Source: a virus. From it: a DNA stretch of 64,000 bases. Shown piece by piece: positions 9,423-56,294 of this stretch (position 1 is its first letter; each line of letters begins with the position of its first letter). A model generated the notes under the pieces. It was given only the letters and a program-made list of their open reading frames with translations. It did not search any database and had not been told where the DNA came from. The position numbers and the translations under genes are program-made. Where the stretch lies: the IMG/VR virus record IMGVR_UViG_3300021519_000007, positions 11,998-75,997 of that record; one strand, 5' to 3'.

Positions 9423-10298
9423 TTATCCCTGGTTCCCGCCTGGTCCGCCTGGTATTGCATTATAGCCGGACTCAGCCACTGGGTCTGCCGCTTTGACAGT
9501 ACTAGATGTTCTTGTATCTAAAGAGTTTCTGTACCTTTTATATATTAAAGAGTTGTTGTCTGGATTCTGATCATTTGGGTTTTCCAAAACACCATCACGA
9601 ACTTCTATCCCGTAAGCAACAACCGCAAACCTTAGATCCAGTTCCGGATTGAACACTCCTGTTTTATGACCGGCCCTGACATCAAGAATATATCCATCGA
9701 AATGCATTCTCGGATAACGGTATCTAACAACTTGTTTTCCATTTCCGATACCATAGTCCCAAACTCCATGACTTCGATAGAAAGAAAGTTCTGGCAACTC
9801 AAAACGAACAAGACTGGCAGCACCATGTATTGACGCTTGATGGTAGCCAAGGGCAAGCGAAACGAGTTGATCGTAATGATCCTGACTCGCTGTTTGCACG
9901 GTGACCATGGCGTCGTTGTATTTAATATGCCTGGGGTAAAACGATTTACCAAAAACCGTTTGCGACTGTGCATACTCCATAGACCAGCCAATTGTTATCT
10001 GCTTGACCCACAGCCTTGCCCTTTTCTGTTCGTCATCGTCCTGACTGATTCCGGGAGTGTGATTTACAATATAGGCGTTGGTAGTGTTTTTGACAGGAGG
10101 AAACGGTTTAGAGGGGTCGACCTTTATTGTTGGGTACTCTATGGCGGCATAGTTCCCTCTCCCTGTTGGTTTCCAACGAGGAGATTTTGTGACGACATCA
10201 ATTTTGGGAGGGGTGTTGGTATCAGCAATAGGTAGTCCGCCATAAGACAAAGATGTTGCGTCGTTTCCTGAACCGCCGCCTGGTAGTTGTACAGTCAT
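9423..10298 (-). CDS. Tail/baseplate protein (tube-initiator-like)
   Basis: 291 aa, coupled within the tail operon. Function inferred from position. Confidence 0.55.
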   Translation of the reverse strand: MTVQLPGGGSGNDATSLSYGGLPIADTNTPPKIDVVTKSPRWKPTGRGNYAAIEYPTIKVDPSKPFPPVKNTTNAYIVNHTPGISQDDDEQKRARLWVKQITIGWSMEYAQSQTVFGKSFYPRHIKYNDAMVTVQTASQDHYDQLVSLALGYHQASIHGAASLVRFELPELSFYRSHGVWDYGIGNGKQVVRYRYPRMHFDGYILDVRAGHKTGVFNPELDLRFAVVAYGIEVRDGVLENPNDQNPDNNSLIYKRYRNSLDTRTSSTVKAADPVAESGYNAIPGGPGGNQG

Positions 10299-33552: not shown

Positions 33553-36479
33553 TAGACACCAAACAGAAAGTTGTCATCAAAACTATCGTTGGCAGTAACT
33601 TCGCCATCAAGATAGTGTGTACCCTCAAGCACCAATTTATCTAGGTTGCGTGCTTTCCCCCGCTCGTTGACAAAATCTTTTTGCTGGTTCGGCAGATAGT
33701 GACGACCGGCGATGTGCTCTGTGCTGGCCTTTCTGCCGGTGCTGAGATCTGTTTCTCCAACCATATCATTTTGACCCGGCCCAGCATCATCCATTGTCTC
33801 AGGAGTTCCATCGAGGGGATCGTTAATAGAATCCTCGTCAATCTCATTAGGATGAATACTATTGCGTCTATCAAACCTCATGTCATTGACATTGAATTCT
33901 TCGATCGTAACCTCATAGGGTTCATCGCCCTCTTCGGGGAAAGCGGAATCAATTCTCTTAAGTGACACATGCTCTGGGGTGTAGTCAACAACCTCAACAA
34001 TGTCAGGCTCTTGATCTTGACCAGAAAACACCTGATAGACGGCACCGATCTCAAGGGGATCGCCGTCAATATCTACGATATCTTCCTGCTTTGCCTCCAT
34101 GTCGTCTTCAACCTCGGGGTTTAGGCTAAGGTTGGCGTCTGGACCGAGGTCCTCGTAAGCATCAAACTCTGCGGGTTCCTCGCTGATTGCGGCCTGGATT
34201 TGCTGACCAATCTGTCCAACAATGCCCTGTTCGGCACGACCCTGGATAGGTGATGGGGCCTGAGGTGTGTTGGTGCCAGGTTGTGCATAGGCAATCTCGG
34301 ATGTCTGCGGCACATAGGCCATCGGTGTGGTCTGCGCCTCTCCCATAGGGGCGGTTTGCGGATTTTGATTGAGCATTGTTTTTGGAATAAAAACACTTCT
34401 ACCATCAGCCGTTGTTGCCATTGTGTAGTCATCAGCATGGAGAATCGACTGCTGCTGATCAGACTGCATGGTCTGTCCAGGTGGCATGGGTGCGGCAAAC
34501 GACTGTTTCTTTTTCGCTTCCATATTTTTATCTTTGAATTTATCGCCAAGAAGAACACTAAAGATCTTCTCCGCCATCTCAACAACCTTTTGAACCTTCT
34601 CGGAATCAACACCCTTAAGCGCACCGTCAATACCCTCGGCGACAACCTTTTCTGGGTCAGATGCAGCCTTCTCGTCATCTTCGGGGGTTGCATCAATCCA
34701 GCCAGAATTTTCGCCAACGATATCTTTAAGGAGTTCTGGCGAGTCGCCATGTTCAGCATTGTATCCACCGGTGCCACCAATACTGGGATCAGAGTCTTGG
34801 CCATGGAGGTGGACAGCGAAGATGTCTTCGCTCGGCTCGGTCACCGATGTCTTCTGGTTGGCAAGGGCCTCACCAAAAAGAGAGCCGAGTTCCTCAGCAT
34901 AAGGCGCAAACGTCTTAGCAATACGCGCTAGGCTATTGGCCTGTCTGACGTATTCGCTACGGTCTTCACCGCAGCAGTGGCACATGCTGTCAATTAGAGG
35001 GTCGGAACATTTGGGGCAAGAGAATTTGAAAGAGGAAAGACGTGCGTCCTCCCACTCGTTCTCATCTCTCACGTGGGAATGACGAGCAATATCCTCATCG
35101 TTCTCCAAATAGTCAACAATGTTCTCATGAATGAGTTGCTTGAAGTCGTCATTGTTTAGAAGGGTGTCGATAACCTCTTCCGGCATCTCTGGAAACTTCA
35201 CGCCCTTGGCTTCTGGCTCTGCATCATCCGAACCAAGGCCCCTCATCTCTGGGTTTCCCTCTTGATCGTGTAGGCCACCGTCATCCATGTTCTTCTCGAC
35301 CTCACCCTCGGCATGTCGTACATTTGAGTTGCCTCCAATATCAGAGCGCATGTGATCTGTGTCGTCTTCGTTGTTTACAATGTCGAATACACCGGCCCCG
35401 GCGTCGGCAGAATGCTTGCCTTTGGCGTTGGGATGACGTGCTTTGTGCAGTTGAGCGTCAACTTTGGCCGCCCATGAGCGACCAGCGTCTCCACCCCAGC
35501 AAAGCCATGCAACATCCCATGCTGTGATCTCGCCGGGCTTGGCTTTCTTAGAGCGACCACCAGCGTGACGCTCAAAGAACGAGTGCATGCGATTGATGTG
35601 TTCTTCGGTTAGTTCTTCACCGGCTGCAATCTTGCGAGCGCGAGCAGCAGTAGCGGCCTCGAAACCATCGCCAGCCTTTCCCTCAGCATAATACTTCAAG
35701 CCACGCTTAGCGGCAGCGCGAACGCCCGCAGGGGGAACCTTGTTGACTTTCTTAACTGCTTCTTCGGGGCTCTGCTTTTTCTTTGCGGCAGCCTCTTTAC
35801 GACCAGCATCGCACTTTTCGCAAGAACCGGGGGCGCAAGGCTTTGTACCGGGTACGCGCTTATAGCCGTCCCAGCATCCACAGTCCTTTGCGACCTTGGC
35901 CGACATTGCGCGACCACCCGGGAGCGCACCATCATTGCGCTCGTTATACTCTCCAGATCCAAACTCATTATCCATTGCCATTGGGTTGGGTTTGAGTGTG
36001 CGATCCCAGTAGGAATCTTCTGTAGCATCGTGGTCAACGTCTTCGATAGCGTTGTCCTCTTCTTTGTCAAGATCGCCGCGCTCGTCCATGTCATGGAGGA
36101 TATCTAGGACTTCGTCCAACTTGCTCTCCATGTCGGAGTGCGCCTCAACGTCTGTCGAATCAGAATCCTCTGTGTAATCGTCGACCCATTCGTTAAGATC
36201 GGACGGTTCGCTAACAATGTCGATACCGTCCTCTGCTGCGCTAACAACATCCCAACCAATCTCTGGGTCGTAGACTAGCCGTTCGCCGTTACCTACGGAC
36301 GACTGGCGGTAGAAAGCAATGTCTGGTTCGGATGGAATTGTCTTGTCCCAGAAGACCTTTGCGGTCTTAACCACACGACCGTCGGTAAACTCTACGGTGT
36401 ATTCTTTTGTGGCCGAATCAAAATCAAGAATGAGGCCGGGTGTGTTACCGGCGAAGACAGTCAGACCTAGATAGTTCAT
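33552..36479 (-). CDS. Large acidic multidomain head (internal) protein
   Basis: Start moved to MNYLG. Contains a 'CWDGYKRVPG..C' module and a 'RMHSFFERH..AWLCWGGDAG' helical module seen in phage head proteins. Confidence 0.7.
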   Translation of the reverse strand: MNYLGLTVFAGNTPGLILDFDSATKEYTVEFTDGRVVKTAKVFWDKTIPSEPDIAFYRQSSVGNGERLVYDPEIGWDVVSAAEDGIDIVSEPSDLNEWVDDYTEDSDSTDVEAHSDMESKLDEVLDILHDMDERGDLDKEEDNAIEDVDHDATEDSYWDRTLKPNPMAMDNEFGSGEYNERNDGALPGGRAMSAKVAKDCGCWDGYKRVPGTKPCAPGSCEKCDAGRKEAAAKKKQSPEEAVKKVNKVPPAGVRAAAKRGLKYYAEGKAGDGFEAATAARARKIAAGEELTEEHINRMHSFFERHAGGRSKKAKPGEITAWDVAWLCWGGDAGRSWAAKVDAQLHKARHPNAKGKHSADAGAGVFDIVNNEDDTDHMRSDIGGNSNVRHAEGEVEKNMDDGGLHDQEGNPEMRGLGSDDAEPEAKGVKFPEMPEEVIDTLLNNDDFKQLIHENIVDYLENDEDIARHSHVRDENEWEDARLSSFKFSCPKCSDPLIDSMCHCCGEDRSEYVRQANSLARIAKTFAPYAEELGSLFGEALANQKTSVTEPSEDIFAVHLHGQDSDPSIGGTGGYNAEHGDSPELLKDIVGENSGWIDATPEDDEKAASDPEKVVAEGIDGALKGVDSEKVQKVVEMAEKIFSVLLGDKFKDKNMEAKKKQSFAAPMPPGQTMQSDQQQSILHADDYTMATTADGRSVFIPKTMLNQNPQTAPMGEAQTTPMAYVPQTSEIAYAQPGTNTPQAPSPIQGRAEQGIVGQIGQQIQAAISEEPAEFDAYEDLGPDANLSLNPEVEDDMEAKQEDIVDIDGDPLEIGAVYQVFSGQDQEPDIVEVVDYTPEHVSLKRIDSAFPEEGDEPYEVTIEEFNVNDMRFDRRNSIHPNEIDEDSINDPLDGTPETMDDAGPGQNDMVGETDLSTGRKASTEHIAGRHYLPNQQKDFVNERGKARNLDKLVLEGTHYLDGEVTANDSFDDNFLFGV

Positions 36480-37577: not shown

Positions 37578-40500
37578 TTAAGCGAACTTAGCCGTAGAAG
37601 CAAGAACCGTATACGTGGGAGTTGCCGCTGTCTTCATAATTGTAAAAGTATACACATCTGTTGAGTTAGCATTGCCACTTGTTGGTGCTGTTCCGGTAAA
37701 CCATTTCGGAGTTACGCCCACACCGTCAATTGCAATTGGTCCCGATGGTCCAGTTGGGTAGTAGGCAGAAGATCCATTCTGACTCAAAACAGAGATTGTG
37801 ATTGCTTGCCCAACCGAAAGCAATGAACTTAAGGTTGTTGTCGAATTGCCGCGAACATTGAGCCACCAATTTGCAGTTGCATTGTTGTTTGCGTACACAA
37901 CCGACTGGGTCTTTGCGTCAAAATTGACAGGACCCGTGAGTCCAGTAGTGGTTGCAAAGGTTTCTGTTGGTCCAACAACGTTAACATTGGAGAGCGTTGT
38001 TGACCAGATCGGTCCGGTGGCTCCGCCAAACGATGTAAGAACAGATCCTGTCGGTCCCGTTGCTAAGAACGCTGTAGTGTCTGCGGAAGACTGATAGTGA
38101 ATCTGACCGGCAAGACCACCCGCAACGTTTGTTGCCTTGCTTGGTGTTGGGTTAGACCCTGACGTAACGCGACCGTACGCGTCTGTTGTGACGGATGTGT
38201 ATGTGCCAGCCGTTCCCGCAGTAGAAAGATCAAGAGTCGCAAGCACAGATCCTGTTGGACCAGACGGACCAGTAGCAAGAGATATTCTTCCGCTTGTCCC
38301 GGACACTCCGGCAACATAAATTGAATTAGATCCGGATGTAACACGACCGTATGTGTCTGTTGTAACGGAATTGTAGGTTCCAGCCGCTCCGGTTGTTTGC
38401 AAACCAACAGTAATAGCGTTTGCACCAGTTGGTCCGGACACCGAGAACGTCAGTTGTCCGCTTGGACCCGTGACACTAGAGACAATAACAGATGAATTAT
38501 TAACGGCGTCAGTGATTCCGTAGCCAGACAGCGTTGTTGGATTTGTTCCCGCCGTCACACGTCCGTAGGTGTCAACGGTCACAGATCTATATGTGCCAGT
38601 GCTAGATATGACATTAGAAGCAAGATCTATTGTGGACAGAACGGATCCTGTTGGTCCCGACGGTCCGGTCGAAAGAGAAACTCTTCCGCTTGTTCCGGCA
38701 ACTCCAGCGATATACGTTGGATTAGATCCGGCGGTAACACGACCGTAGGCATCTGTTGTTACAGAGTTATACGTTCCAGATGTTCCCGTTGTTGGTAAGC
38801 CAACAGTTATCGCATTGGCCGTGGTGGGACCAGTAACGCTAAACGTTAACTGACTACTTGGACCCGTGACGCTAGTCACAATTTGATCAACAATGTTATG
38901 AGCGACTAGCGTTGTTGGATTGCTGCCTGATGTTACTCGACCATATGTGTCAACGACAACAGACTGATATGTCCCAGCAGAAGCGACACCCGTTGGTAGA
39001 TCGATTGATACGGCGTTTGAACCCGTTGGTCCCGTGACGCTAAACAACAAACGGTTTGGACCCGTAACACTGGCGACCAAAAGGGAAGTTGAGCCATTGG
39101 TAACGCGACCATAAGCATCGGTGGTAACAGAGTTGTACGTTCCAGCAGTTCCGGTTGTTCCAAGTTCAAGAGTAATGGCATTGGACCCGGTTGGTCCACT
39201 AACAGACGCCACAACTCTTCCGCTTGGCCCCGTAACACTAGAGACGATTACAGAGGAACTGCTTACCGCGTCGGTGATCCCATAACCAGATAGCGTTGTC
39301 GGGTTAGTTCCTGCCGTGACGCGCCCGTAGGTGTCAACAGTCACAGATCTGTATGTTCCTGTGCTTGAGATTACACCAGAGGCTAGATCAAGTGTTGGGT
39401 TGCCAGACACTCCACTGCCATTTGATACGGTAATTCTTGCAGAACTTGCTGTGGCAATGCTTGCTGTCGATGTTGTTCCAGTCGCCGTCTTGACGATGAA
39501 TCCTGTTCCCGCAAGACTTGGGATGGAGGCAAGGATGCCTGTGCTGTCTAGCGGTTGAGCGTCGTTGATTCCATACAGGGCAAGCGTATTCGGGTTTGTT
39601 CCCGACGTAACTCGTCCGTAAGTATCAACCGTTACTGACTTATATGTGCCAGCACCCGTGCTAACAATATTTGAAGCGAGGTCGAACGTTGCCACAACGG
39701 ACCCCGTTGGGCCAGAGGGCCCTGTGGCCAAAGATATTCTCCCGCTTGTTCCAGAGACATCAGCAACATACGCTGGGTTAGAGCCAGCAGTAACGCGACC
39801 CTTAGAATCGATTGTGACCGAAGCGTAGGTCCCGGTTGGGCCAGTCAAAGACGCAAGGGTGGGATTGGGATAGGATCCTGCAAGATCGCCGCCTGCTGGG
39901 CCCGTTGGTGTTCTGGAATTTGTGAGCGCTGCATTTGTGCTGAGAACAACTGGCGTCCCGCCAGATGTTATCGCGCTCGTCACAGCAAGATCTCCGCTGA
40001 TGCTTGTTGTTGCGCTAATTGTTAACTGACCAGGACTTGATCTGTATATAGAGGCGTCAGTAGAACCGCTTCCAGACCCCCAAAGAATCTGGCCGTCTGC
40101 CTGTACAGAAAGTCGGTTATAAGTGTCCCCGTCGACCTTACCCTGAAATACCAGATCGGTTGATACAGATCCAACTGAGGAGAATGTGTTTATAGATTCA
40201 ATAACTGGTTCGGTTGTAGGGCGGTATAGATAGGTGTCTGTGCCAATAGCAATACCACCCAAGGGGCCCTGTGTCGGCAAAGACAGTTGCTCGGCTGTCT
40301 CTAAAACACCACCGGTCCCACTGTATAGAGAAACACCTCCGCCTAGCATGATGCCACCCATTGAGCCCGTATCCATTATGGACAACTGGCCCTGAGAAAT
40401 GGTTAGCGCAGCAGTACCGACATCTGAGTTTATTGTTAAACCAGATGCGCCAAGGGATGTCGACCCAAGTAGGATGTTCTCAATGGAAATTATTTCATCC

Positions 40501-41137: not shown

Positions 41138-41572
41138 TTAGTTCTCTGTAATTGTTAAAGCACCCGCAGAAAAACTCGCCGTGTCACCCGTACTGATGGA
41201 CTTTGGCGTCGTGAGGTCGCCCCAATAAAGAATATTACCAGAAGACGCGGCATCAAGCAGGGCGAACTGATTGATTATGCCCCAAGATGCTGTTGCTGTT
41301 GACCATGTGATTGCTACACCGTTTTGCTTGAGACCCGTTGTTGAGCCGGTAGCGTTTGGCCAATTGGTTGTGTCGTTGGTGAGCGATTGGCGACCGTAGG
41401 CGGTGCCAGACGCACTCACTTCGTTTGCTGCAGTTCCACCCGATGGATCAGTCAATGAGCCAGCAGTGGTCCAGAGACCGACGTAAACGGTGGCGGCGGC
41501 AGTGTAAGGGGTATTACCGAGAACGTGATTTAGAATTACCTTTGAAAGATAATTGGATTTTGATCCCGCCAT
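41138..41572 (-). CDS. Minor tail/fibre-associated structural protein
   Basis: Widespread phage family motif 'SNYL...ILNHVL...YT...VYVGL..YGRQS..WG.I..FALLDAASSGN.LYW'. Confidence 0.8.
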   Translation of the reverse strand: MAGSKSNYLSKVILNHVLGNTPYTAAATVYVGLWTTAGSLTDPSGGTAANEVSASGTAYGRQSLTNDTTNWPNATGSTTGLKQNGVAITWSTATASWGIINQFALLDAASSGNILYWGDLTTPKSISTGDTASFSAGALTITEN

Positions 41573-41742
41573 TACTTAAACTCCCATTTGTTCGTTTCGT
41601 CGTTCCAGATAATCTCTGGTCGTTTTTCAATTTCTTCTACTGTCAGTGCGCCGTGTGTTGTGACATCTTCGGGCATTGATACGAACTTTGTGCCAGTCCA
41701 ACAAATTGGGCCAACAGTTTTCTCAGACTTTTTACTAGTCAT
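41572..41742 (-). CDS. Small hypothetical protein
   Basis: 56 aa (MTSKKSEK...WEFK), coupled to both neighbours by TAATG overlaps. Confidence 0.55.
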   Translation of the reverse strand: MTSKKSEKTVGPICWTGTKFVSMPEDVTTHGALTVEEIEKRPEIIWNDETNKWEFK

Positions 41743-42221
41743 TATGTCTGACGATAGGTGATGGTAATTCTTTCGGTGTCGCCGTTTGAGAAGTTGCGTG
41801 TAGCCGCAAGATCTGCGCCGAAAATGCAGTCGTCTGTTCCGGTCGTATTGCTGAGCGCAACGAACCAGAGCGTTGCCCCATTCACGTTTGGCGTACCTGT
41901 AAATGTAAACGTCACCTGTGGTGCCGTCGACTGGTACGAACCGGAAGAGAGCGAACATGCGGGCCAGCCGTTGGTGCTGCCTGCGTTGCGATTGAGACCC
42001 TGACGGGCGTAGCCACCGTTGCTTGTCTGACCGATTTCAGCAAGTGACGTTGTCGTGGATGTGCCGTTGCCGACTGTCTTGTCGGCACCAACGCCGCCTG
42101 TCTTTGCGCCCATACCGACATAAACGGTTGAGCCTGGAACGCTATTTGTTCCAGCGGTGAAGTTGCCAAGCCACGTGTTGATGAGGCTCTGCTCTCCCCT
42201 ATTCCAAAGAATGTAAGCCAT
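41742..42221 (-). CDS. Minor structural protein (related to 41138..41572)
   Basis: 'GGYARQ', 'QVTFTF', 'NGDTERITIT'; SD AGGAG. Confidence 0.7.
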   Translation of the reverse strand: MAYILWNRGEQSLINTWLGNFTAGTNSVPGSTVYVGMGAKTGGVGADKTVGNGTSTTTSLAEIGQTSNGGYARQGLNRNAGSTNGWPACSLSSGSYQSTAPQVTFTFTGTPNVNGATLWFVALSNTTGTDDCIFGADLAATRNFSNGDTERITITYRQT

Positions 42222-42258: not shown

Positions 42259-42777
42259 TCAGGTTGTTGAAGATTTAATGTGTAAATCGAGTGTCGATGG
42301 CTTTAGGTTCTCGGGATTGAGGACTTCGCAGAGGCCACCTTGCTTTGTCCCATCGGTAAAGATTACCCACCATTTACGGGGACGGAGTCCTAGATAAATC
42401 TCTGTACGGTCCCAATAAATAACCTCGACCAGTTGTGATGGGCCGTCAACTAGGTGGGCAAAGCAAAACCCCGGGATCGGGCCGTCGTAATCTCTGGTGC
42501 TGACGACGTGCTGGTTAATCCCAACCTTGTCGCCACGCATATCAAATTGAATTTCACGCACCCATACGGTCGGCTTTGATTTGCAATCGTAGCACCAGCA
42601 GGAACTCTGTCTGTCCTCAGACTTGATGCTCAAAAGTTCATCGACTTTTTTCTGAGCAATTTTTCTCTCTAGTGAGTGGTCTTCCTGATTGGATCCGGTC
42701 TCTATCTTCGAGTAAACGAAGTTTGATCCGTTTTCCTGCTCAAATTGCAGTTCATCATCTGGTTTTCGATTGACCAT
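42259..42777 (-). CDS. Hypothetical protein with CxxC..CxxH
   Basis: 172 aa ORF coupled to the HD gene. Confidence 0.6.
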   Translation of the reverse strand: MVNRKPDDELQFEQENGSNFVYSKIETGSNQEDHSLERKIAQKKVDELLSIKSEDRQSSCWCYDCKSKPTVWVREIQFDMRGDKVGINQHVVSTRDYDGPIPGFCFAHLVDGPSQLVEVIYWDRTEIYLGLRPRKWWVIFTDGTKQGGLCEVLNPENLKPSTLDLHIKSSTT

Positions 42778-42779
42778 AA

Positions 42780-43883
42780 TTATATTATATCATATTCTTT
42801 AAGAATAATCATGAGAGAACTGGCCTCTTCAACCTTCTCCCAGTCTGTGTCCTTATAGGCAACCTTTGCGATCAATTTGCGCATCTCTTCGATCTCCTCT
42901 TCCGCATCCTTCTGCTTTGGCTTGTTCTGAATATCCCCAAGCCTGAGGATCAACATATCGTATGCGTTTTCTTCGCCGTGCATTGTTTCGATAAATTCTC
43001 TTGCACCCTTTTTATTATCAAAGTGATCAAACATATGCTCGCGGATGAAGAAGCAAACCTCTTTGGTGTCTTCCTCCGGCACACCCAGACGATCAAACAT
43101 CTCTTTAACCATGTCTGGGCCGACCTCCTCATGGTCTCCACCCTGACCATCCGGACCCTTGTGAAAGTGGGTTCTACCCTTCTCGTCAACCCAGACAGAT
43201 CTCAGTTTCCCAATATCATGAAGAAATGCAGCCCAACGAAGGTTTCTGTTGTTGCTGTGCTTGGCAACGTAGTCCAAACAAATGAGAAGGTGCTGGAACA
43301 GTTCAGAGGAGGTGTTCTTGTACCTTTGCCAGAACCCTTTGCTCTCGGCAACCTCCGGGAGCATGATCTTAAGCGCTCCAACCTCCTCCATAAGTCGAAT
43401 TGCCGCTACGGGATTCTCTGCATCCATTATGTCATTAAGGCAATCGCGTATCTCTTCGGCGGGACAGTCCACAATATTTTTGACATATTTTTTAGCATCA
43501 AAGATATCTTGCTCGTCTGGGATGTGTTCATTCATCGACCTAGTCACAAAAAGCGTCAGGAGATTGTCTACCTCAAAAAATGGGCTGGTCTTTGCGGTCC
43601 TTCTATTGTTTTGCATATAGTTTTGAACAACATCGTAGACCGTGTTCCGATTCCCCGGACACTCTTCAAAACAAATACGATTTAGATGGTTGATGTATCC
43701 GCGTGCCAGGATCCCCTTGTCTGACGGCGGAGCCTGCAAACCAGCAGCCCAGTAGTTGGCCTCGCGGGATAGTTCGGGGGCAAGATGCTCCAAGAGGACA
43801 AAGTGCGGCTCATAGCCCGTGACAACTTTTGGCTCACCAGAGAATGGTAGAACAGCAACCCAGTTATTCTTATCCGATGGCAT
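42780..43883 (-). CDS. HD-domain phosphohydrolase resembling the C-terminal half of CCA-adding enzymes
   Basis: 'AEEIRDCL..IM..ENP..AIRLM..GAL..MLPE' RNA-binding helices; HD residues QH, LHDIGK, DHEEVG, REHM, LGD. No nucleotidyltransferase head. Confidence 0.8.
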   Translation of the reverse strand: MPSDKNNWVAVLPFSGEPKVVTGYEPHFVLLEHLAPELSREANYWAAGLQAPPSDKGILARGYINHLNRICFEECPGNRNTVYDVVQNYMQNNRRTAKTSPFFEVDNLLTLFVTRSMNEHIPDEQDIFDAKKYVKNIVDCPAEEIRDCLNDIMDAENPVAAIRLMEEVGALKIMLPEVAESKGFWQRYKNTSSELFQHLLICLDYVAKHSNNRNLRWAAFLHDIGKLRSVWVDEKGRTHFHKGPDGQGGDHEEVGPDMVKEMFDRLGVPEEDTKEVCFFIREHMFDHFDNKKGAREFIETMHGEENAYDMLILRLGDIQNKPKQKDAEEEIEEMRKLIAKVAYKDTDWEKVEEASSLMIILKEYDII

Positions 43884-43910
43884 TACACTAATTATTTCAA
43901 CGATTGGGGC

Positions 43911-43944
43911 AAAAAGAGAGCCGCCCCCCGAAGGGGACGGCTCT
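43911..43944 (-). terminator. Rho-independent terminator separating accessory and virion blocks
   Basis: AGAGCCGTCCCC-TTCG-GGGGGCGGCTCT followed by CTTTTT; a second hairpin lies just upstream (43953-43986). Confidence 0.8.
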
Positions 43945-44808: not shown

Positions 44809-44839
44809 ACTGTAGCACACATATCGTGCGATGTGTCAA
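44809..44839 (-). promoter_or_regulatory. SigA-type promoter with 19-bp dyad spacer
   Basis: TTGACA-N19-TACAGT with extended TG; imperfect inverted repeat ACACAT..ATGTGT. Confidence 0.55.
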
Positions 44840-45225
44840 GCAACAAGTTCTTTCTTCTGATCCCTCTTGAGTTTGAGGTAGTGGCTGTTGCACATCCCCT
44901 TACTGTGATGAGCCTCATTGCAGTTTTCAACATCACATCCCCTACGAGCCCTAGGTGGTGCGGAGATAACAAACTCGCATTCAGCAAAGGCCACATCATC
45001 ATCGTACTCAGGAAAGAAGTCGATAATTGAACGGCTCCCCTCTTTTGAGATCATCCGATCTATGGTGTCAAACTGGACTCTTGTGATTCTTCCTGCGGTG
45101 AAGTCGTTGATGCGCTTTGCGGATACGCCGCAACGAGCAGCAAATGCTTCGGCAGTCTCTCTTTCAGAGCAAGACTTAATCCAAGGAATGAGAGGTGCTA
45201 TGGGGAGGACTCGCGGAAGGTTCAT
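44836..45225 (-). CDS. XRE-like HTH protein with C-terminal CCCH zinc finger
   Basis: 'AEAFAARCGVSAKRINDF' HTH; 'CDVENCNEAHHSKGMCNSHY'. Confidence 0.7.
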   Translation of the reverse strand: MNLPRVLPIAPLIPWIKSCSERETAEAFAARCGVSAKRINDFTAGRITRVQFDTIDRMISKEGSRSIIDFFPEYDDDVAFAECEFVISAPPRARRGCDVENCNEAHHSKGMCNSHYLKLKRDQKKELVA

Positions 45226-45281: not shown

Positions 45282-45307
45282 CTACGAAACATTTGATACG
45301 AGAAAAG

Positions 45308-45381
45308 TCCGCGAGGCAGGATTCGAACCTGCAATCTGCCGGGTAGAAACCGGCTGCCTTGATCCATTTGGCCACTCGCGG
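45308..45381 (-). tRNA. tRNA-Arg(UCU)
   Basis: Cloverleaf: acceptor CCGCGAG/CTCGCGG, anticodon arm GCCGG-TTTCTAC-CCGGC, T arm GCAGG-TTCGAAT-CCTGC. CCA not encoded. Confidence 0.9.
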
Positions 45382-45389
45382 GATGCGTT

Positions 45390-45878
45390 TTAGACAGCGA
45401 CTCCATAAATGCCATCGTCATCCATCAGAGATGCCATCCCCGTGGATCCTAAACCATTCTCTCCACGATCAGTCGTAGTTGCGACCTGCAATTCCGCAAG
45501 AGCCTCGGGCATGTCCATAACGAAGTTGAAGAACAGTTGGGCAACACGATCACCACGACTGATCAAAACCTCTTTGCTGCCCGCGTTGTAAAGGATGACC
45601 CTAACCTCGCCCCGGTAGCCCGGGTCTACAAGTCCGGGTGCGTTGAGCACGAACACTCCATGCTTTGCCGCAAGACCAGAACGGCTCATAACAAACGCAC
45701 AGATATCTTTGGGCATCTCAAGAGAGATACCGGTGGACACGATAATCATCTCTCCGGGTTTCGCTGTGTAATGGTTGTCAGCACAGATATCATAACCCGC
45801 ATCAGACTCATGCGCCTTGTGCGGTGTAACTGCGGTGTCTGTTAAGCGAACAAAACGGACATCAATCATCAAAGCCAA
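45390..45878 (-). CDS. dut: dUTP diphosphatase
   Basis: Trimeric dUTPase motifs: AGYD, RSGLA, GLVDPGYRGE, RVAQL, RGENGLGSTG. Confidence 0.97.
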   Translation of the reverse strand: MALMIDVRFVRLTDTAVTPHKAHESDAGYDICADNHYTAKPGEMIIVSTGISLEMPKDICAFVMSRSGLAAKHGVFVLNAPGLVDPGYRGEVRVILYNAGSKEVLISRGDRVAQLFFNFVMDMPEALAELQVATTTDRGENGLGSTGMASLMDDDGIYGVAV

Positions 45879-48466: not shown

Positions 48467-50299
48467 TTAGAACTCTCCCATGGAGAGTCTGTTGAGGAGA
48501 TCAGACAGGATGTGTTCTTCATCCTTTTGTGTCCCATCCACCACGGCAGAAATTATAGCACGCTTGTGGTCGATCAATTCGGCCAGATACTCATCAATTG
48601 TCCCCGCAGCCATGAGGTAGTAGCAGGAAACAGGATTCTCCTGCCCTGAGCGATGGCAACGATCCTCGGCTTGGTGGTGTTTAGTCGGAGTCCACGTCAA
48701 CTCAAGGAAGGCGACGTTGGAGCAGACATGCTGCCACCCGTCGATCCCCTCGGCAGCGGCGTCGATGTTGGCGACAACAACACGAACACTGTCGTCCTCG
48801 GAGAAGCGGTCGATTGCTGCCTGCCTTGCATCCGATCCCATGCCGCCCACAACACGGACGGCCTTGGGGCCAAGGTGTTTGCACACCATGTCCACTGTGT
48901 TGCGGTGGCTGCAGAACAGGACGAGTTTCTCGTCAGATGTGAGGAAGTCGTCGATCCATTCAAGCGCAGCATTGATCTTTCCACGGGCACATACTTGACG
49001 CAGTGCGTTGAGTTTTGTGATTGCAATTGCCGCCTTTGCACGGGCGACCTTTGCATCGACCTCATGCTGCCAAGCGTTTTGAGCCTCGACCGGCGTAAGA
49101 GTAGACAGATGCTCATTGAATTTTTGATCCGAATTAACCTGCGAACGAATCCAAACAGCGATGTCATCTCGAACCCGATTATACTCGGGGCGGTTGGTGA
49201 TCTCCAGCGGAATGGAGATGCGCTCCTTCGGAGGCAGTTCTGTAAGGACATCCTCTTTGCGTCTACGGATCAAGATGCCACTCCTGCGCAGGCGAGTATT
49301 CAACTCGAACAAATTACTTGCTCCGCGGGTGTCCCAACCGTAACCGTTGTAGGAAGGGTTACAATAGCGCTCAACAAATGTCCAGTTTCTACCGCCTGTG
49401 ATTTCATTGAGGCGGCCAATGATTGACAACTGAGACATAAGGTCGATTGGACTGTTTGTCAGGGGTGTGCCCGACATCGCAATCCTGATTTCTATCTGGC
49501 TGGCAAGGATCGCCGATGCTTTGGCCCGCTTGGACTTACCGTTCTTAATGAAATGCGCCTCATCAAAAACAACGGCCTTACATCTCAGGCGCTGGATCTC
49601 AGCGACCCAACCAGCAAGGATGTCATAGTTGATTATGACAATTTTTGTATTGCCGGGAATCCTTTTGCTCGTGCGGCCCGAACAGACAAAGATCAAGTCG
49701 TTAGAAATGGAGGGAAAGAATCTATTTATCTGACGAACCCAACCCATTTTGATTGAAGCGGGGCAGATGACTACAACGGGGTATGCCTGCTCCACTGCCA
49801 CAGCAGCGAGAGCGCAGAGCGTTTTGCCCGTCCCCATCTCGTCACCTATGTAGACCCTACGGTTACGAACGATCCAGTCAACCGCAGCCTTCTGATAGTT
49901 GCGGAGTGATCCAGCCAAACCGGGGACAATAATGTCCGGCCCCTCTTGGGCGACAGACAGTTCCTGGTTCTCTTCTTGCTGCTTCTGACGTTCTTCTTCA
50001 GCCTGCAGGATCTGCTCAATGAGCCGGTCAGCAGAAGCGTTACGCTTGAAACCATACTCTTCGATGATCTCTAGCATTGGCTCAATTGCCTCACGCTCGG
50101 CAGGAATAACCCAAGCGCTAATCATCTTGTCGCCACGGGGGTAGAAGTTCGGGTGCATTTTCACACCCCGAATATTTCTTTTGAGATCACGCAGGCGAGC
50201 AGCAATCTTGCTTGTCTCATCTGTCGATAGATCATCTACGGCAATACCAAAGCCGTTCCCGCTTCTAAGCGCACCGAAATGCTTGAATGGTCTAGACAA
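48467..50299 (-). CDS. SNF2-family (SMARCAL1/HARP-like) helicase
   Basis: 'GDEMGTGKT', 'DEAH', 'SGTP', 'QAEDRCHRSGQ'. TTG start after SD AAGGAG. Confidence 0.92.
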   Translation of the reverse strand: MSRPFKHFGALRSGNGFGIAVDDLSTDETSKIAARLRDLKRNIRGVKMHPNFYPRGDKMISAWVIPAEREAIEPMLEIIEEYGFKRNASADRLIEQILQAEEERQKQQEENQELSVAQEGPDIIVPGLAGSLRNYQKAAVDWIVRNRRVYIGDEMGTGKTLCALAAVAVEQAYPVVVICPASIKMGWVRQINRFFPSISNDLIFVCSGRTSKRIPGNTKIVIINYDILAGWVAEIQRLRCKAVVFDEAHFIKNGKSKRAKASAILASQIEIRIAMSGTPLTNSPIDLMSQLSIIGRLNEITGGRNWTFVERYCNPSYNGYGWDTRGASNLFELNTRLRRSGILIRRRKEDVLTELPPKERISIPLEITNRPEYNRVRDDIAVWIRSQVNSDQKFNEHLSTLTPVEAQNAWQHEVDAKVARAKAAIAITKLNALRQVCARGKINAALEWIDDFLTSDEKLVLFCSHRNTVDMVCKHLGPKAVRVVGGMGSDARQAAIDRFSEDDSVRVVVANIDAAAEGIDGWQHVCSNVAFLELTWTPTKHHQAEDRCHRSGQENPVSCYYLMAAGTIDEYLAELIDHKRAIISAVVDGTQKDEEHILSDLLNRLSMGEF

Positions 50300-50332
50300 G
50301 GAATCTCCTTTCTCTTGCCTGTGGTTGTGTAG

Positions 50333-50406
50333 TAGCACCTGAGGGAATTGAACCCTCACCCCCGGTGACTAGTTCTGACCGCCGTGGGGGCGAACCTGCG
50401 GTGCTA
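50333..50406 (-). ncRNA. tRNA-like RNA lacking a D-arm
   Basis: Acceptor-like TAGCACC/GGTGCTA, canonical T arm GAGGG-TTCAATT-CCCTC, long interrupted central helix. Confidence 0.55.
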
Positions 50407-50619: not shown

Positions 50620-50692
50620 TACTCCCACGGGGATTCGAACCCCGGTATCTGCCATGAAAGGGCAGGGTCCTAGGCCACTAGACGATGGGAGC
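50620..50692 (-). tRNA. tRNA-Glu(UUC)
   Basis: GCTCCCA/TGGGAGT acceptor, CTGCC-CTTTCAT-GGCAG anticodon arm, CGGGG-TTCGAAT-CCCCG T arm. CCA not encoded. Confidence 0.9.
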
Positions 50693-55146: not shown

Positions 55147-55358
55147 TAGACTAGAAGGATTCCGCCACCGACGCAGGACATATCGAATCGATAGTCCTCG
55201 TCTCTGCCGGACTTGTAATTGACGTAAAGAGCGCCGTCGAACAACTCCCACATGTCCACATCAACAAATGCTGGATCTTGCATTGTGATATCACCAGCAA
55301 ACAGGGAGATCCACTCGGATGCGGTGGTGATCTTGTCCCCCAGAATGGTATTGCTCAC
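55146..55358 (-). CDS. Hypothetical protein
   Basis: 70 aa, coupled. Confidence 0.5.
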   Translation of the reverse strand: MSNTILGDKITTASEWISLFAGDITMQDPAFVDVDMWELFDGALYVNYKSGRDEDYRFDMSCVGGGILLV

Positions 55359-56068
55359 GACACCTTCTCCTTCTTCTTTGTGTTTGTGACGCCTGTGGTG
55401 GCGGCCACCTTGTTTGCGATCAGATCATCCAAGCGTCCCCTGTAGACGTTGGGATGCTCACCGATTACAAATTCCTTGTTCATGTTTGCCGCAACGGCAA
55501 AGCCGACCAGCCTTTGCACAGTGGAAGGCTCAGAGTCCAACTCAAATGGAGGGACACGCCGCTGCTCGGCATACTGAAGCGTTGACATCATCAGATAGCG
55601 GCCACCGCCACGGTAAATAGCGGCAAGATAACTACGACCCCGCATCACAATTTCGATGATGGCAACCTTGTCGTCGATCACAGCCATGAGGTCGGAATAC
55701 TGCATGACAGCATAGTCCTCGTCAGCGTTCTTATCCAACCCAAGATAATAGGTCGAGACAAATAACGACGGGTGGATCTCATCTGGATCAACAATGGTTT
55801 TGACCTCGGTCATAGAAGACCTGTTGAGGCTGAGACCTTTGATCTCGTCCTTCTCAAGAATCACATACTTGCCGTCGGCATACTTGTACCCGTCACGGAT
55901 GTCCTCGTAGGCAATCTTATTGCCGTCGCAATCAATGTTGATCCGATTGATCGGTAGACCGTTTGGAGCGATCTGAGTAAGACCCGGAGATCCATCATCA
56001 AACGCCTTGTGGATTGAAAGCGGTGCCTCGACCGTGTCGACACACACCGTGATGTTTTGCATACTCAT
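55355..56068 (-). CDS. ku: Ku-like DNA end-binding protein
   Basis: 'IAYEDIRDGYKYADGKYVILEKDEI', 'DEIHP...TYYLG', 'VMRGR.YLA', 'LMMSTLQY', 'YRGRLDDLIANK'. Confidence 0.85.
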   Translation of the reverse strand: MSMQNITVCVDTVEAPLSIHKAFDDGSPGLTQIAPNGLPINRINIDCDGNKIAYEDIRDGYKYADGKYVILEKDEIKGLSLNRSSMTEVKTIVDPDEIHPSLFVSTYYLGLDKNADEDYAVMQYSDLMAVIDDKVAIIEIVMRGRSYLAAIYRGGGRYLMMSTLQYAEQRRVPPFELDSEPSTVQRLVGFAVAANMNKEFVIGEHPNVYRGRLDDLIANKVAATTGVTNTKKKEKVS

Positions 56069-56072
56069 TGTC

Positions 56073-56294
56073 TTAGCCCTCCATGGATCCGAAGAAGTCA
56101 GCGAGAGCCTCATCCGTGCCACACGGGCTACAGATGTAGGTCTTGTTATCCTCACGGCTGAGAGCCGGAGGGGAGGGCATGCCATCCTCCCACTTTACAC
56201 CGTAAGGCGTGTAAAAGTTTTTGTTGCACATTGGGCAGAGAATAATATCCCCACTCTCCTGCATTTCAGCGTGCAGTTCAGACATCTTACTCAT
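56073..56294 (-). CDS. Small zinc-binding protein
   Basis: 'CPMC..PALSREDNKTYICSPCGTDEAL' phage motif. Confidence 0.7.
   Translation of the reverse strand: MSKMSELHAEMQESGDIILCPMCNKNFYTPYGVKWEDGMPSPPALSREDNKTYICSPCGTDEALADFFGSMEG

Follow-up and report, generated by a model that had tools for sequence, protein, structure and literature searches.

The window analyzed here, a 64,000-nucleotide stretch of viral DNA, encodes a protein (Table 1) that, judged from its sequence, derives from a class II CCA-adding enzyme of phage or actinobacterial type but is without the polymerase. The protein keeps the RNA-binding body and the HD catalytic residues of these enzymes, has lost their nucleotidyltransferase head, and begins with an N-terminal domain (N-domain) that also heads much larger proteins, one of which lies in the same slot of a syntenic phage. 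We infer that this headless HD protein acts on RNA ends and is packaged and delivered, with its gene position and architecture suggesting that it is present in the virion. At a little under even confidence, we tentatively favor reading it as an RNA-end HD hydrolase that is mounted upon an N-domain adaptor, made late, and probably carried as virion-associated cargo. The lineage is one of freshwater myoviruses that probably infect actinobacteria.

Table 1. Features of the headless HD locus, in coordinates of the window.
Feature	Position	Strand	Basis or details
Whole gene	42780..43883	(-)	367 aa plus stop; ORF list, translation, Pfam/PHROG/NCBIfam matches
N-terminal domain, residues 1-95	43599..43883	(-)	Conservation, AF2 model, phmmer
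Linker, residues 96-103	43575..43598	(-)	Disordered in the model; [KR]-x-[AS] just before (R-T-A, residues 95-97)
Neck and RNA-binding helices, residues 104-185	43329..43574	(-)	hhalign, Pfam PF12627, alignment consensus
HD phosphohydrolase and subsequent helices, residues 186-342	42858..43328	(-)	H198, H222-D223, K226, H251, H283, D317
C-terminal tail, residues 343-367	42783..42857	(-)	pLDDT 45-58 (AF2), conservation
Intrinsic terminator	43907..43944	(-)	12-bp stem with 9 G-C pairs, loop TTCG, T5 run; terminator scan
Candidate extended -10 (TGA-AATAAT)	43884..43899	(-)	Sequence; ends 7 nt 5' of the ATG
172-aa gene	42259..42777	(-)	Starts 2 nt past the HD stop codon; no Shine-Dalgarno

The protein retains the body and HD site of class II CCA enzymes and lacks the polymerase head

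The headless HD protein runs from the N-domain through a CCA-enzyme neck and body into an HD phosphohydrolase and a C-terminal tail, and it has ~24 full-length homologue clusters with 50-81% identity. The initial annotation, made from the sequence of the window, had claimed that the RNA-binding helices and the full HD metal set of CCA-adding enzymes are kept while the polymerase head is gone, and both parts of this claim held up. Pfam detected PolyA_pol_RNAbd (PF12627) at residues 131-180 (E 3.9e-6, 27 bits, cut-off 22) and HD (PF01966) at residues 196-288 (E 1.7e-9, 38.5 bits, cut-off 22), while the PolyA_pol head (PF01743) was undetected in the same scan of the 367-aa protein. Likewise, the match to PHROG 2244 (tRNA nucleotidyltransferase) was confined to residues 132-339. 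When the family was compared by hhalign with a reference profile of 18 complete HD-type class II CCA enzymes, residues 104-350 aligned from exactly motif D onward (probability 100, E 8e-47) and residues 1-103 stayed outside the alignment. All 22 family members have the HD-site residues listed in Table 1, and these line up with the positions H, HD, K, H, H, and D that never vary in the full enzymes. The AF2 model, of high confidence, is helical, and its best structural matches are the HD-bearing class II tRNA nucleotidyltransferases 3WFO-3WFS. Sequence, profile, and fold all agree on the class II CCA-enzyme kinship of the body and HD domain.

Motif D of CCA enzymes (E/D-D-x-x-R) serves in CTP/ATP selection. 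It is degenerate in the headless family, which has x-D-P-x-N-I-L where the full enzymes have E-D-P-L-R-x-L-R, with Asn in place of Arg. Having lost the Pol-beta head together with the Arg by which motif D selects nucleotides, the protein cannot add CCA. The NCBIfam scores also lie far under the equivalog cut-offs (TIGR02692, 51.8 vs 438.8 bits; PRK10885, 39.1 vs 451 bits). In addition, the tRNA elbow-binding tail that is common in the compared full enzymes (PF13735) was undetected in the headless HD protein, which makes a strictly tRNA-specific reading doubtful. A megablast search of cultured phages gave no match, and the sole matches from a metagenome scan were full CCA enzymes of distant relationship.

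The N-domain is a conserved fold that also heads much larger proteins

From conservation and modeling, the N-domain is a new and autonomous alpha/beta module of ~95 aa, conserved and confidently folded. Its predicted layout comprises strands at residues 6-13 and 19-23, helices at 27-34 and 39-46, strands at 57-64 and 70-74, and a helix at 79-95, with a pLDDT of about 84-93 throughout in the full-length AF2 model and 18 residues invariant among 22 homologues. When modeled alone from an alignment of only 3 sequences, it gave a pLDDT of 50, too low to be usable. In both conservation and folding, the N-domain exceeds the cleaved targeting peptides that are known.

Searches of Pfam, of PDB sequences, and of cultured phages, and a comparison with the CCA head profile, gave no match to the N-domain. 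In the PDB sequence search with the N-domain profile, nothing fell below E 0.6; none of the cultured phages searched carries the domain; and an Atlas structure search with residues 1-100 returned weak, unrelated matches (TM 0.34-0.61) without a common family. Exhaustive phmmer, however, found the N-domain in proteins of 677-1,942 aa, where it occupies residues 2-93; these include multidomain proteins of 1,544-1,942 aa in which it forms the extreme N-terminus. These giant proteins contain GNAT, PcfJ-like, and zinc-finger parts, and the HD module is present in some of them: homologues P0127 and P0128 combine HD with GNAT, and P0127 additionally has a PcfJ-like core and more. Other N-domain giants are without any CCA body. 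A search seeded with P0127 likewise recovered longer N-domain proteins; a word-based search seeded with P0001 did not, which is weak evidence. Viral-contig locus searches with P0127 alone and with P0033 alone found nothing. We also considered a likeness, seen by eye, between the N-domain and the N-terminal extension of two sister-clade proteins (P0032 and the 1065-aa protein of L003), which was rejected when hmmsearch at maximum sensitivity gave no match.

Because the same domain heads giants, one of them in the identical slot of a syntenic phage, we read the N-domain as a probable constant adaptor with swappable cargo. The initial annotation had described the N-terminal region as an unrelated leader, a head-targeting propeptide that would be removed by cleavage. 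Its separateness from the nucleotidyltransferase head is borne out by hhalign and Pfam, and its link to the virion receives indirect support from the giants and the shared slot. A loose, disposable propeptide of the typical kind, in contrast, is at odds with a pLDDT of about 90 and 18 invariant residues.

Two cleavage sites had been proposed for this leader, with different outcomes. The linker after the N-domain is predicted to be flexible, with a pLDDT <50 at residues 95-98 in the AF2 model, and 27 of the 28 homologues have a [KR]-x-[AS] motif where the domain meets the linker, versus 13.8 expected from shuffles, although the sequences are related and the counts are therefore not independent. 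The boundary motif R-T-A is a putative prohead-protease cleavage site. The second proposed site, 'SREA|N', fared poorly, as its Ala is found in only 5/28 homologues and the site lies within the helix at residues 39-46, where accessibility is poor.

The gene opens the block of structural genes

The initial annotation had also put the gene at the head of the virion block, with a terminator directly before it, and both the terminator scan and the structural genes downstream agree with this placement. The strong intrinsic terminator (scan match 43944..43917 on the minus strand, 33 nt 5' of the ATG) closes the upstream accessory genes and is kept nearly base for base in the related loci L001 and L002, though the proteins are only about 56% identical. 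No Shine-Dalgarno sequence precedes the headless HD ATG. A -10-like [CA]ATAA[TCA] element lies at about the same distance from the ATG in L001, L002, and L116 (7 nt in both the window and L002), and the gene is possibly the leaderless start of a late unit.

The 172-aa gene always comes next after an N-domain gene; its counterparts in L001, L002, and L116 are 66-73% identical and lie at the equivalent position. Its protein has no family match, and a PDB sequence search found nothing below E 0.6. Judging from this arrangement, the headless HD gene would be translationally coupled to its downstream neighbor, and the 172-aa protein is a candidate partner of the N-domain protein. Further downstream are genes for a Gp80-type head fibre, a 1003-aa fibre, the prohead protease, the cement protein, the major capsid protein, the sheath, and the baseplate. 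The slot at the start of this structural block is common to L001, L002, and L116, and in the syntenic phage L116 exactly the headless HD slot is occupied by an N-domain giant followed by the same downstream genes.

A proposed model for the headless HD protein

In the reading that we favor, the HD enzyme would most likely be metal-dependent and work on the 3' ends of RNA (tRNA), either as a 2',3'-cyclic phosphodiesterase or as a 3'(2')-phosphatase. Nuclease-damaged ends would thereby become 3'-OH ends, ready for completion by a ligase or by the CCA enzyme of the host. The flexible linker would hang this enzyme on the ~95-aa N-terminal module. We regard the latter as a potential assembly or delivery adaptor because it is the constant part of the slot, in which sister phages put polyvalent-type proteins of 1.5-1.9 kaa; the enzyme would be its late-made, probably virion-associated cargo. 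HD domains in general hydrolyze many substrates.

Relationship to known systems

The closest comparison is with the bacterial class II CCA enzymes, such as E. coli Cca, TIGR02692, and the Aquifex structures 3WFO-3WFS. E. coli Cca is the 'multifunctional CCA addition/repair protein', and TIGR02692 represents the actinobacterial class II CCA enzymes. The headless HD protein shares with all of these the neck from motif D onward, PolyA_pol_RNAbd, and every HD catalytic residue. It differs in lacking the Pol-beta head and the motif D Arg, in its undetected tail domain, and in what has been added, an unrelated N-domain of ~95 aa and a C-terminal peptide that is conserved. Yakunin et al. 2004 (pmid 15210699; ref 37 of PMC2190708) assigned to the HD domain of E. 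coli Cca the activities of a 2',3'-cyclic phosphodiesterase, a 2'-nucleotidase, and a phosphatase. The phage tRNA nucleotidyltransferases of PHROG 2244 are homologous in body and HD domain, being 27-30% identical across ~45% of the query, but unlike the headless HD protein they keep the polymerase head, are annotated as metabolic, and in no case carry the N-domain. Carriers of PHROG 2244 include Cronobacter CR3/CR9, Pectobacterium phiTE, Sinorhizobium phiM12, Bacillus phage G (gp264), and Mycobacterium phage EniyanLRS, and these homologues sit in large myoviruses with tRNA genes.

Polyvalent proteins encoded among late phage genes have been predicted to be packaged in the capsid and co-injected (Iyer, Burroughs, Anand, de Souza, Aravind 2017, PMC5512222). 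The N-domain giants resemble them in stringing together HD, GNAT, PcfJ-like, and zinc-finger parts over 1.5-1.9 kaa in a late-gene setting. The position of the headless HD gene among late/virion genes matches the same pattern, whereas the protein itself differs in having one enzymatic module plus the N-domain only. The MuF, zincin-like MPTase, and methylase-helicase dyad modules were undetected in both the headless HD protein and the giants. The same study makes no mention of an HD or CCA-derived module, while 2H cyclic phosphodiesterases do occur in polyvalent proteins and were proposed to degrade signaling nucleotides (PMC5512222).

Cultured relatives provide a functional parallel. The capsid protein is ~52% identical to those of Rhodococcus phage E3 and Mycobacterium phage ScoobyDoobyDoo, both of which encode inside the head module a LigT/2H-type protein (E3 gp74, ScoobyDoobyDoo gp88) that relates to RNA 2',3'-cyclic-phosphate chemistry. 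These LigT proteins have a 2H fold with two HxT motifs, are encoded between portal and protease, and have neither an N-domain nor HD homology. In the window's lineage, none of the four records G000-G003 (27-52% complete) contains a recognizable 2H/LigT gene (PF13563), RNA ligase gene (PF09414), or separate polymerase head gene. The presence of LigT in E3 and ScoobyDoobyDoo, with none seen here, fits the idea that the headless HD protein supplies this chemistry through a non-homologous enzyme. In the E3 record LigT is not flagged as structural, its neighbors being so flagged, and we found nothing relevant in the literature on virion proteomics of LigT-type phage proteins.

The T4 internal proteins IPI-III and Alt are targeted to the capsid by short peptides, which the prohead protease cuts at L/I-x-E. 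The headless HD protein is similar in its proposed N-terminal targeting part, its exposed linker with a short conserved motif, and the location of its gene in a late block. It differs in that its N-terminal part is a 95-aa folded domain and its motif is [KR]-x-[AS], with both cleavage and packaging only proposed.

Alternative explanations

A more specific version of the cargo reading, close to what the initial annotation had envisaged, holds that the N-domain is a previously unrecognized capsid-loading/ejection adaptor whose cargo, either the CCA-derived RNA-end-healing HD hydrolase or a multi-enzyme protein of 1.5-1.9 kaa, would enter the head, be freed at [KR]-x-[AS] by the prohead protease, and be injected along with the DNA, so that tRNA ends cut by host nucleases would be healed by the HD enzyme before any phage gene is expressed. 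We consider this full scenario unlikely. It is possible, though not likely, that the protein is instead an unpackaged cytoplasmic enzyme, made late or by read-through, that maintains phage/host tRNA 3' ends or nucleotide pools and uses its N-domain for oligomerization, regulation, or partner binding (e.g. with the 172-aa protein), rather than for virion targeting. The position of the gene is by itself no proof of packaging, and this explanation is consistent with the compact conserved fold of the N-domain, with the two phage tRNA genes, both without an encoded CCA, with the CCA-type enzymes that are ordinary metabolic genes in many tRNA-bearing phages, and with the E3 LigT annotation. It nevertheless leaves unexplained why N-domain multi-enzyme proteins of 1.5-1.9 kaa occupy the same slot, as well as the conserved terminator cut-off from the accessory genes and the coupling to fibre genes.

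The two remaining alternatives concern the enzyme rather than its location. We regard it as quite unlikely that the protein hydrolyzes small signaling/alarm nucleotides, such as the cyclic oligonucleotides of CBASS, type III CRISPR, or Thoeris-like systems, 2',3'-cNMPs, (p)ppGpp, or Ap4A, with the CCA-derived helices being a mere scaffold. The undetected elbow-binding tail and the role proposed for the 2H domains of polyvalent proteins would both suit such a function, but tRNA nucleotidyltransferases are by far the closest relatives, the PolyA_pol_RNAbd neck is kept and conserved, and the conserved residues of the family include no HD-GYP or other specific signature. It is very improbable that the N-domain is a shrunken, inactive nucleotidyltransferase head, either in a decayed CCA enzyme or in one part of a split enzyme with a separately encoded head. 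Such a remnant is suggested by VIA alignments to 3WFO, 3AQL, and 1MIV, which span model residues 1-3 to about 346 and are ~20-25 residues longer than the body alone could give, and by protein-language-model features of residues 1-100 that weakly resemble PolyA_pol head clusters (0.80-0.83, under the lead threshold); a missing head gene is also conceivable given that the genome record of the window is only 48% complete. Conversely, a divergent nucleotidyltransferase is contradicted by the profile comparison with full enzymes, in which similarity to the head had a probability of 0.5%. Moreover, the G[SG] and [DE]x[DE] signatures are absent among the conserved N-domain residues, the strand-strand-helix-helix-strand-strand-helix order is unlike the Pol-beta pattern, the N-domain is also present on giants without a CCA body, and no separate head gene was seen in the four related records, which are 27-52% complete.

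Implications

If the RNA-end hydrolase reading is true, the little-studied HD repair activity of bacterial CCA enzymes is naturally separated from polymerization in the headless family, which would be a clean tool for examining the role of this activity on RNA ends. The N-domain would likewise be a candidate for an adaptor that loads proteins into phage heads, and it might find use in packaging foreign proteins. Defenses that disable tRNA, e.g. anticodon nucleases, are increasingly recognized. A phage-carried end-healing enzyme would constitute a new kind of counter-defense, parallel to the actinophage head-module LigT/2H genes. Cas12a3, which cuts tRNA CCA tails, is one such tRNA-disabling defense (PMC13594972). 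If the reading is wrong, the protein would be an ordinary phage nucleotide/RNA hydrolase with an unexplained N-domain.

In the giant P0127, the fused HD module comes without the C-terminal tail of the headless HD protein, and this tail is possibly a docking peptide. It is disordered by prediction, and yet W348 is invariant and the terminal D-I-[IL] is almost invariant.

A CCA-enzyme body without its polymerase head

The window is the final 64 kb of a 76-kb IMG/VR record with a CheckV-estimated completeness of 48%, and essentially all of its genes lie on the minus strand. One of these encodes P0001, a 367-aa protein with Pfam matches above the gathering score to PolyA_pol_RNAbd (residues 131-180) and HD (residues 196-288) and no Pfam match to the PolyA_pol head (PF01743). 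Its match to PHROG 2244 (tRNA nucleotidyltransferase) is limited to residues 132-339, and the top NCBIfam model, the actinobacterial CCA enzyme TIGR02692, scores 51.8 bits (cut-off 438.8). In a profile-profile comparison of 22 P0001 family members with 18 complete HD-type CCA enzymes, residues 104-350 aligned with the full enzymes (probability 100, E 8e-47); motif D is exactly where this alignment starts, and residues 1-103 stay outside it. H198, H222-D223, K226, H251, H283, and D317 are invariant across the 22 members and match invariant residues of the full CCA enzymes one for one. The motif D arginine is absent from the family, which has D-P-x-N instead of E-D-P-L-R. An AlphaFold2 model built with the 22-sequence alignment (mean pLDDT 89) is helical over residues 105-342, and its top Foldseek matches (3WFO, 3WFP, and 3WFR, E 3e-8) are HD-bearing class II tRNA nucleotidyltransferases, while its matches among viral models are phage tRNA nucleotidyltransferases. 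The initial annotation had described RNA-binding helices and a full HD metal set without a polymerase head; the Pfam matches, the invariant residues, and the profile alignment all bear this out. Since P0001 lacks both the head and the motif D arginine, it cannot polymerise. As the HD site is intact, P0001 almost certainly acts as a metal-dependent phosphohydrolase.

The family also has an HD-domain insertion, G-x-G-Q-G-x-x-H-E-E-V-G, in common with a clade comprising protein P0032 and a 1,065-aa protein of a high-GC phage contig (L003). The latter holds a complete CCA enzyme (head, neck, and HD) mid-protein, flanked by ~370 N-terminal and ~300 C-terminal residues, and P0032 has the same N-terminal extension. 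A frame overlapping or following the end of the L003 gene shows, by eye, a CxC...CxH pattern resembling a SWIM zinc finger. In the C-terminal tail of P0001 (residues 343-367), which is predicted to be disordered, one Trp is invariant and the terminal D-I-[IL] nearly so. The tail resembles a short docking motif, and it is lost where the module is fused within giant proteins.

An N-terminal domain shared with giant proteins

The initial annotation treated the region before the CCA-enzyme body as an unrelated leader of ~100 aa, proposed to be removed by cleavage at 'RRTA|K' or 'SREA|N'. It indeed has no profile similarity to the CCA head (probability 0.5%), which also argues against a divergent nucleotidyltransferase, but it is a folded domain rather than a leader. 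Residues 1-95 (the N-domain) are confidently modelled by AlphaFold2, with block means of pLDDT of 77-93, in the order strand, strand, helix, helix, strand, strand, long helix, and 18 positions are invariant among homologues of 50-81% overall identity. Nothing in Pfam, PDB sequences, or cultured phages matched it. In an exhaustive phmmer search of 1.84 billion cluster representatives with residues 1-99, however, the N-domain was found outside its own family, spanning residues 2-93 in proteins of 1,544, 1,771, 1,850, 1,854, and 1,942 aa and in a single protein of 677 aa (E 1e-9 to 4e-12). As whole proteins, the 1,544- to 1,942-aa giants correspond to no Pfam or PHROG family. P0127 (1,854 aa) begins with the entire 340-aa N-domain-plus-HD module at 51% identity, followed by a GNAT acetyltransferase and ~1,450 further residues. 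The order in P0128 is N-domain, GNAT, an insert, then CCA body and HD, whereas P0122, P0123, P0125, and P0126 have the N-domain without the HD module. Several giants, most fully P0122 and P0127, have stretches of a core of at most ~900 aa in common; the core has an HC[IV]G motif and weakly resembles PcfJ (Pfam E 0.006 in one protein and 0.036 in another; Atlas 0.91). In P0123, P0125, and P0126, zinc fingers of the DnaJ or Anti-TRAP type lie near the C-terminus. Because the N-domain opens both the P0001 family and these varied giants, it is an autonomous module, always at the extreme N-terminus with variable cargo behind.

The two proposed cleavage sites fared differently. 'SREA|N' does not hold up as a processing site, as just 5 of the 28 sequences have its Ala and it lies inside helix 39-46. 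'RRTA|K' sits where helix 79-95 ends and the model turns disordered (pLDDT <50 for residues 95-98). Of the 28 homologues, giants included, 27 carry a [KR]-x-[AS] motif within the boundary segment of 16 residues, against 13.8 in composition-preserving shuffles, and 17 have the strict [KR]-x-A form. As these sequences are related, the enrichment is no more than suggestive. The prohead protease of the window matched no Pfam family, and its sole match, a PHROG head-maturation-protease family, is uninformative on cleavage specificity.

A conserved slot at the head of the structural genes

Two related viral contigs (L001 and L002) encode P0001 orthologues of 56-57% identity and have the same gene order as the window: dUTPase, HNH, a 110-aa gene, the HD gene, a 172-aa gene, two Gp80-type genes, a 139-aa gene, a fibre, and a 995-aa gene. 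A third (L116) has the same neighbours (54-85% identity), and there the slot is occupied by the giant P0125 (1,544 aa), which has only the N-domain in common with P0001. The 172-aa gene always directly follows the slot gene; its start in the window lies 2 nt past the HD stop codon, with no Shine-Dalgarno. The N-terminal part of P0001 is a new, distinct domain family, common to P0001 and giant multidomain proteins in a conserved slot.

The HD gene was also said to be the first gene of the virion block, directly after a terminator. This is confirmed: structural genes lie downstream and, 33 nt ahead of its ATG, there is a G+C-rich hairpin of 12 bp with a T-run. The hairpin is kept nearly base for base in the window, L001, and L002, while the encoded proteins are only about 56% identical. 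The HD gene has no Shine-Dalgarno, and a TGn-AATAAT element ends 7 nt before its ATG; -10-like elements precede the ATG in all four loci, at 7 nt in the window and L002. From these elements and the absent Shine-Dalgarno, the late transcript of the HD gene may be leaderless. Downstream are a Gp80 head-fibre homologue (E 1e-33) and its paralogue, a 1003-aa fibre, an fn3/Gly-rich protein, a prohead-protease fusion, a cement protein, the major capsid protein, and sheath and baseplate genes. The 144-aa gene of the Gp80-type pair is a clear homologue of Gp80 (podophage GP4 head fibre I), and the pair is followed by a 139-aa protein with G-P-T repeats and then by the fibre, which is repetitive.

Coordinates of the features discussed
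Feature	Location	Strand	Remark
HD gene (P0001)	window 42780-43883	-	
C-terminal tail of P0001	window 42783-42857	-	
Terminator and start region upstream of HD gene	window 43884-43944	-	L001 about 9930-9991; L002 about 9930-9997
Two Gp80-type genes	window 41138-41572, 41742-42221	-	apparent relatives: N-termini similar by eye
HNH endonuclease	window 44836-45225	-	accessory region upstream; adjoins tRNA-Arg gene
tRNA-Arg(TCT), tRNA-Glu(TTC)	window 45307-45381, 50620-50692	-	neither with encoded 3' CCA
dUTPase	window 45390-45878	-	accessory region upstream
SNF2-like helicase, 630 aa	window 48467-50359	-	
Ku-like DNA end-binding protein	window 55355-56185	-	accessory region upstream
P0125	L116 9995-14629		
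1,065-aa protein gene	L003 8468-11665	+	high-GC phage contig
LigT/2H-type gene	phage E3 (L117) 35751-36260		annotated '2'-5' RNA ligase LigT'
LigT/2H-type gene	phage ScoobyDoobyDoo (L118) 38680-39309		annotated 'RNA ligase'

Possible substrate and role

In E. coli Cca, the homologous domain acts as a 2',3'-cyclic phosphodiesterase, a 2'-nucleotidase, and a phosphatase (Yakunin et al. 2004, as cited in PMC2190708). The retained neck and RNA-binding helices point to RNA 3' ends as the putative substrate of P0001. Any specificity for tRNA is doubtful, since the tail domain PF13735, present in many of the full CCA enzymes compared, was not detected in P0001. As neither tRNA gene encodes its CCA, the phage depends on a CCA enzyme; no CCA-adding head domain or CCA enzyme was found in the 76-kb record (48% complete). 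Phage polyvalent proteins, which usually include GNAT domains among their parts, are predicted to be packaged and co-injected, and for the 2H cyclic phosphodiesterases among them the proposed role is either processing of RNA ends or degradation of defence nucleotides (PMC5512222). P0001 and the giants resemble them in joining a constant N-domain to swappable cargo at the head of a structural block, and by this analogy N-domain proteins would be packaged and co-injected as well. The kinds already known behind P0001 are the HD phosphohydrolase of CCA-enzyme lineage and the polyvalent-type phage effector architecture; for its substrate, packaging, cleavage, and any anti-defence role, we rely on inference. 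Overall, the initial observation and protein description were correct, and the initial interpretation gained partial support.

Cluster C mycobacteriophages, Rhodococcus phage E3, and Gordonia phages have capsid proteins ~52% identical to that of the window. Lake and freshwater metagenome runs of several independent studies contain DNA nearly identical to the window. Based upon these actinophage-like capsid genes, the freshwater source, and a G+C content of about 49%, the host may be a freshwater actinobacterium. Both E3 and Mycobacterium phage ScoobyDoobyDoo, which are cultured relatives by capsid protein, have a LigT/2H-type gene within the head module, between portal and protease. The E3 product, gp74, has two HxT motifs, and its neighbours are flagged as structural in the E3 record while gp74 itself is not. 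Neither the window nor the three related records gave a LigT or PF13563 match. This hints, though it does not prove, that in the freshwater lineage the HD enzyme is the non-homologous counterpart of LigT, with the same chemistry.

Elsewhere in the window, the best PHROG matches of the SNF2-like helicase are to central parts of helicase and methyltransferase families with profiles of 1,881-2,269 positions, which are polyvalent-type methylase-helicase proteins.
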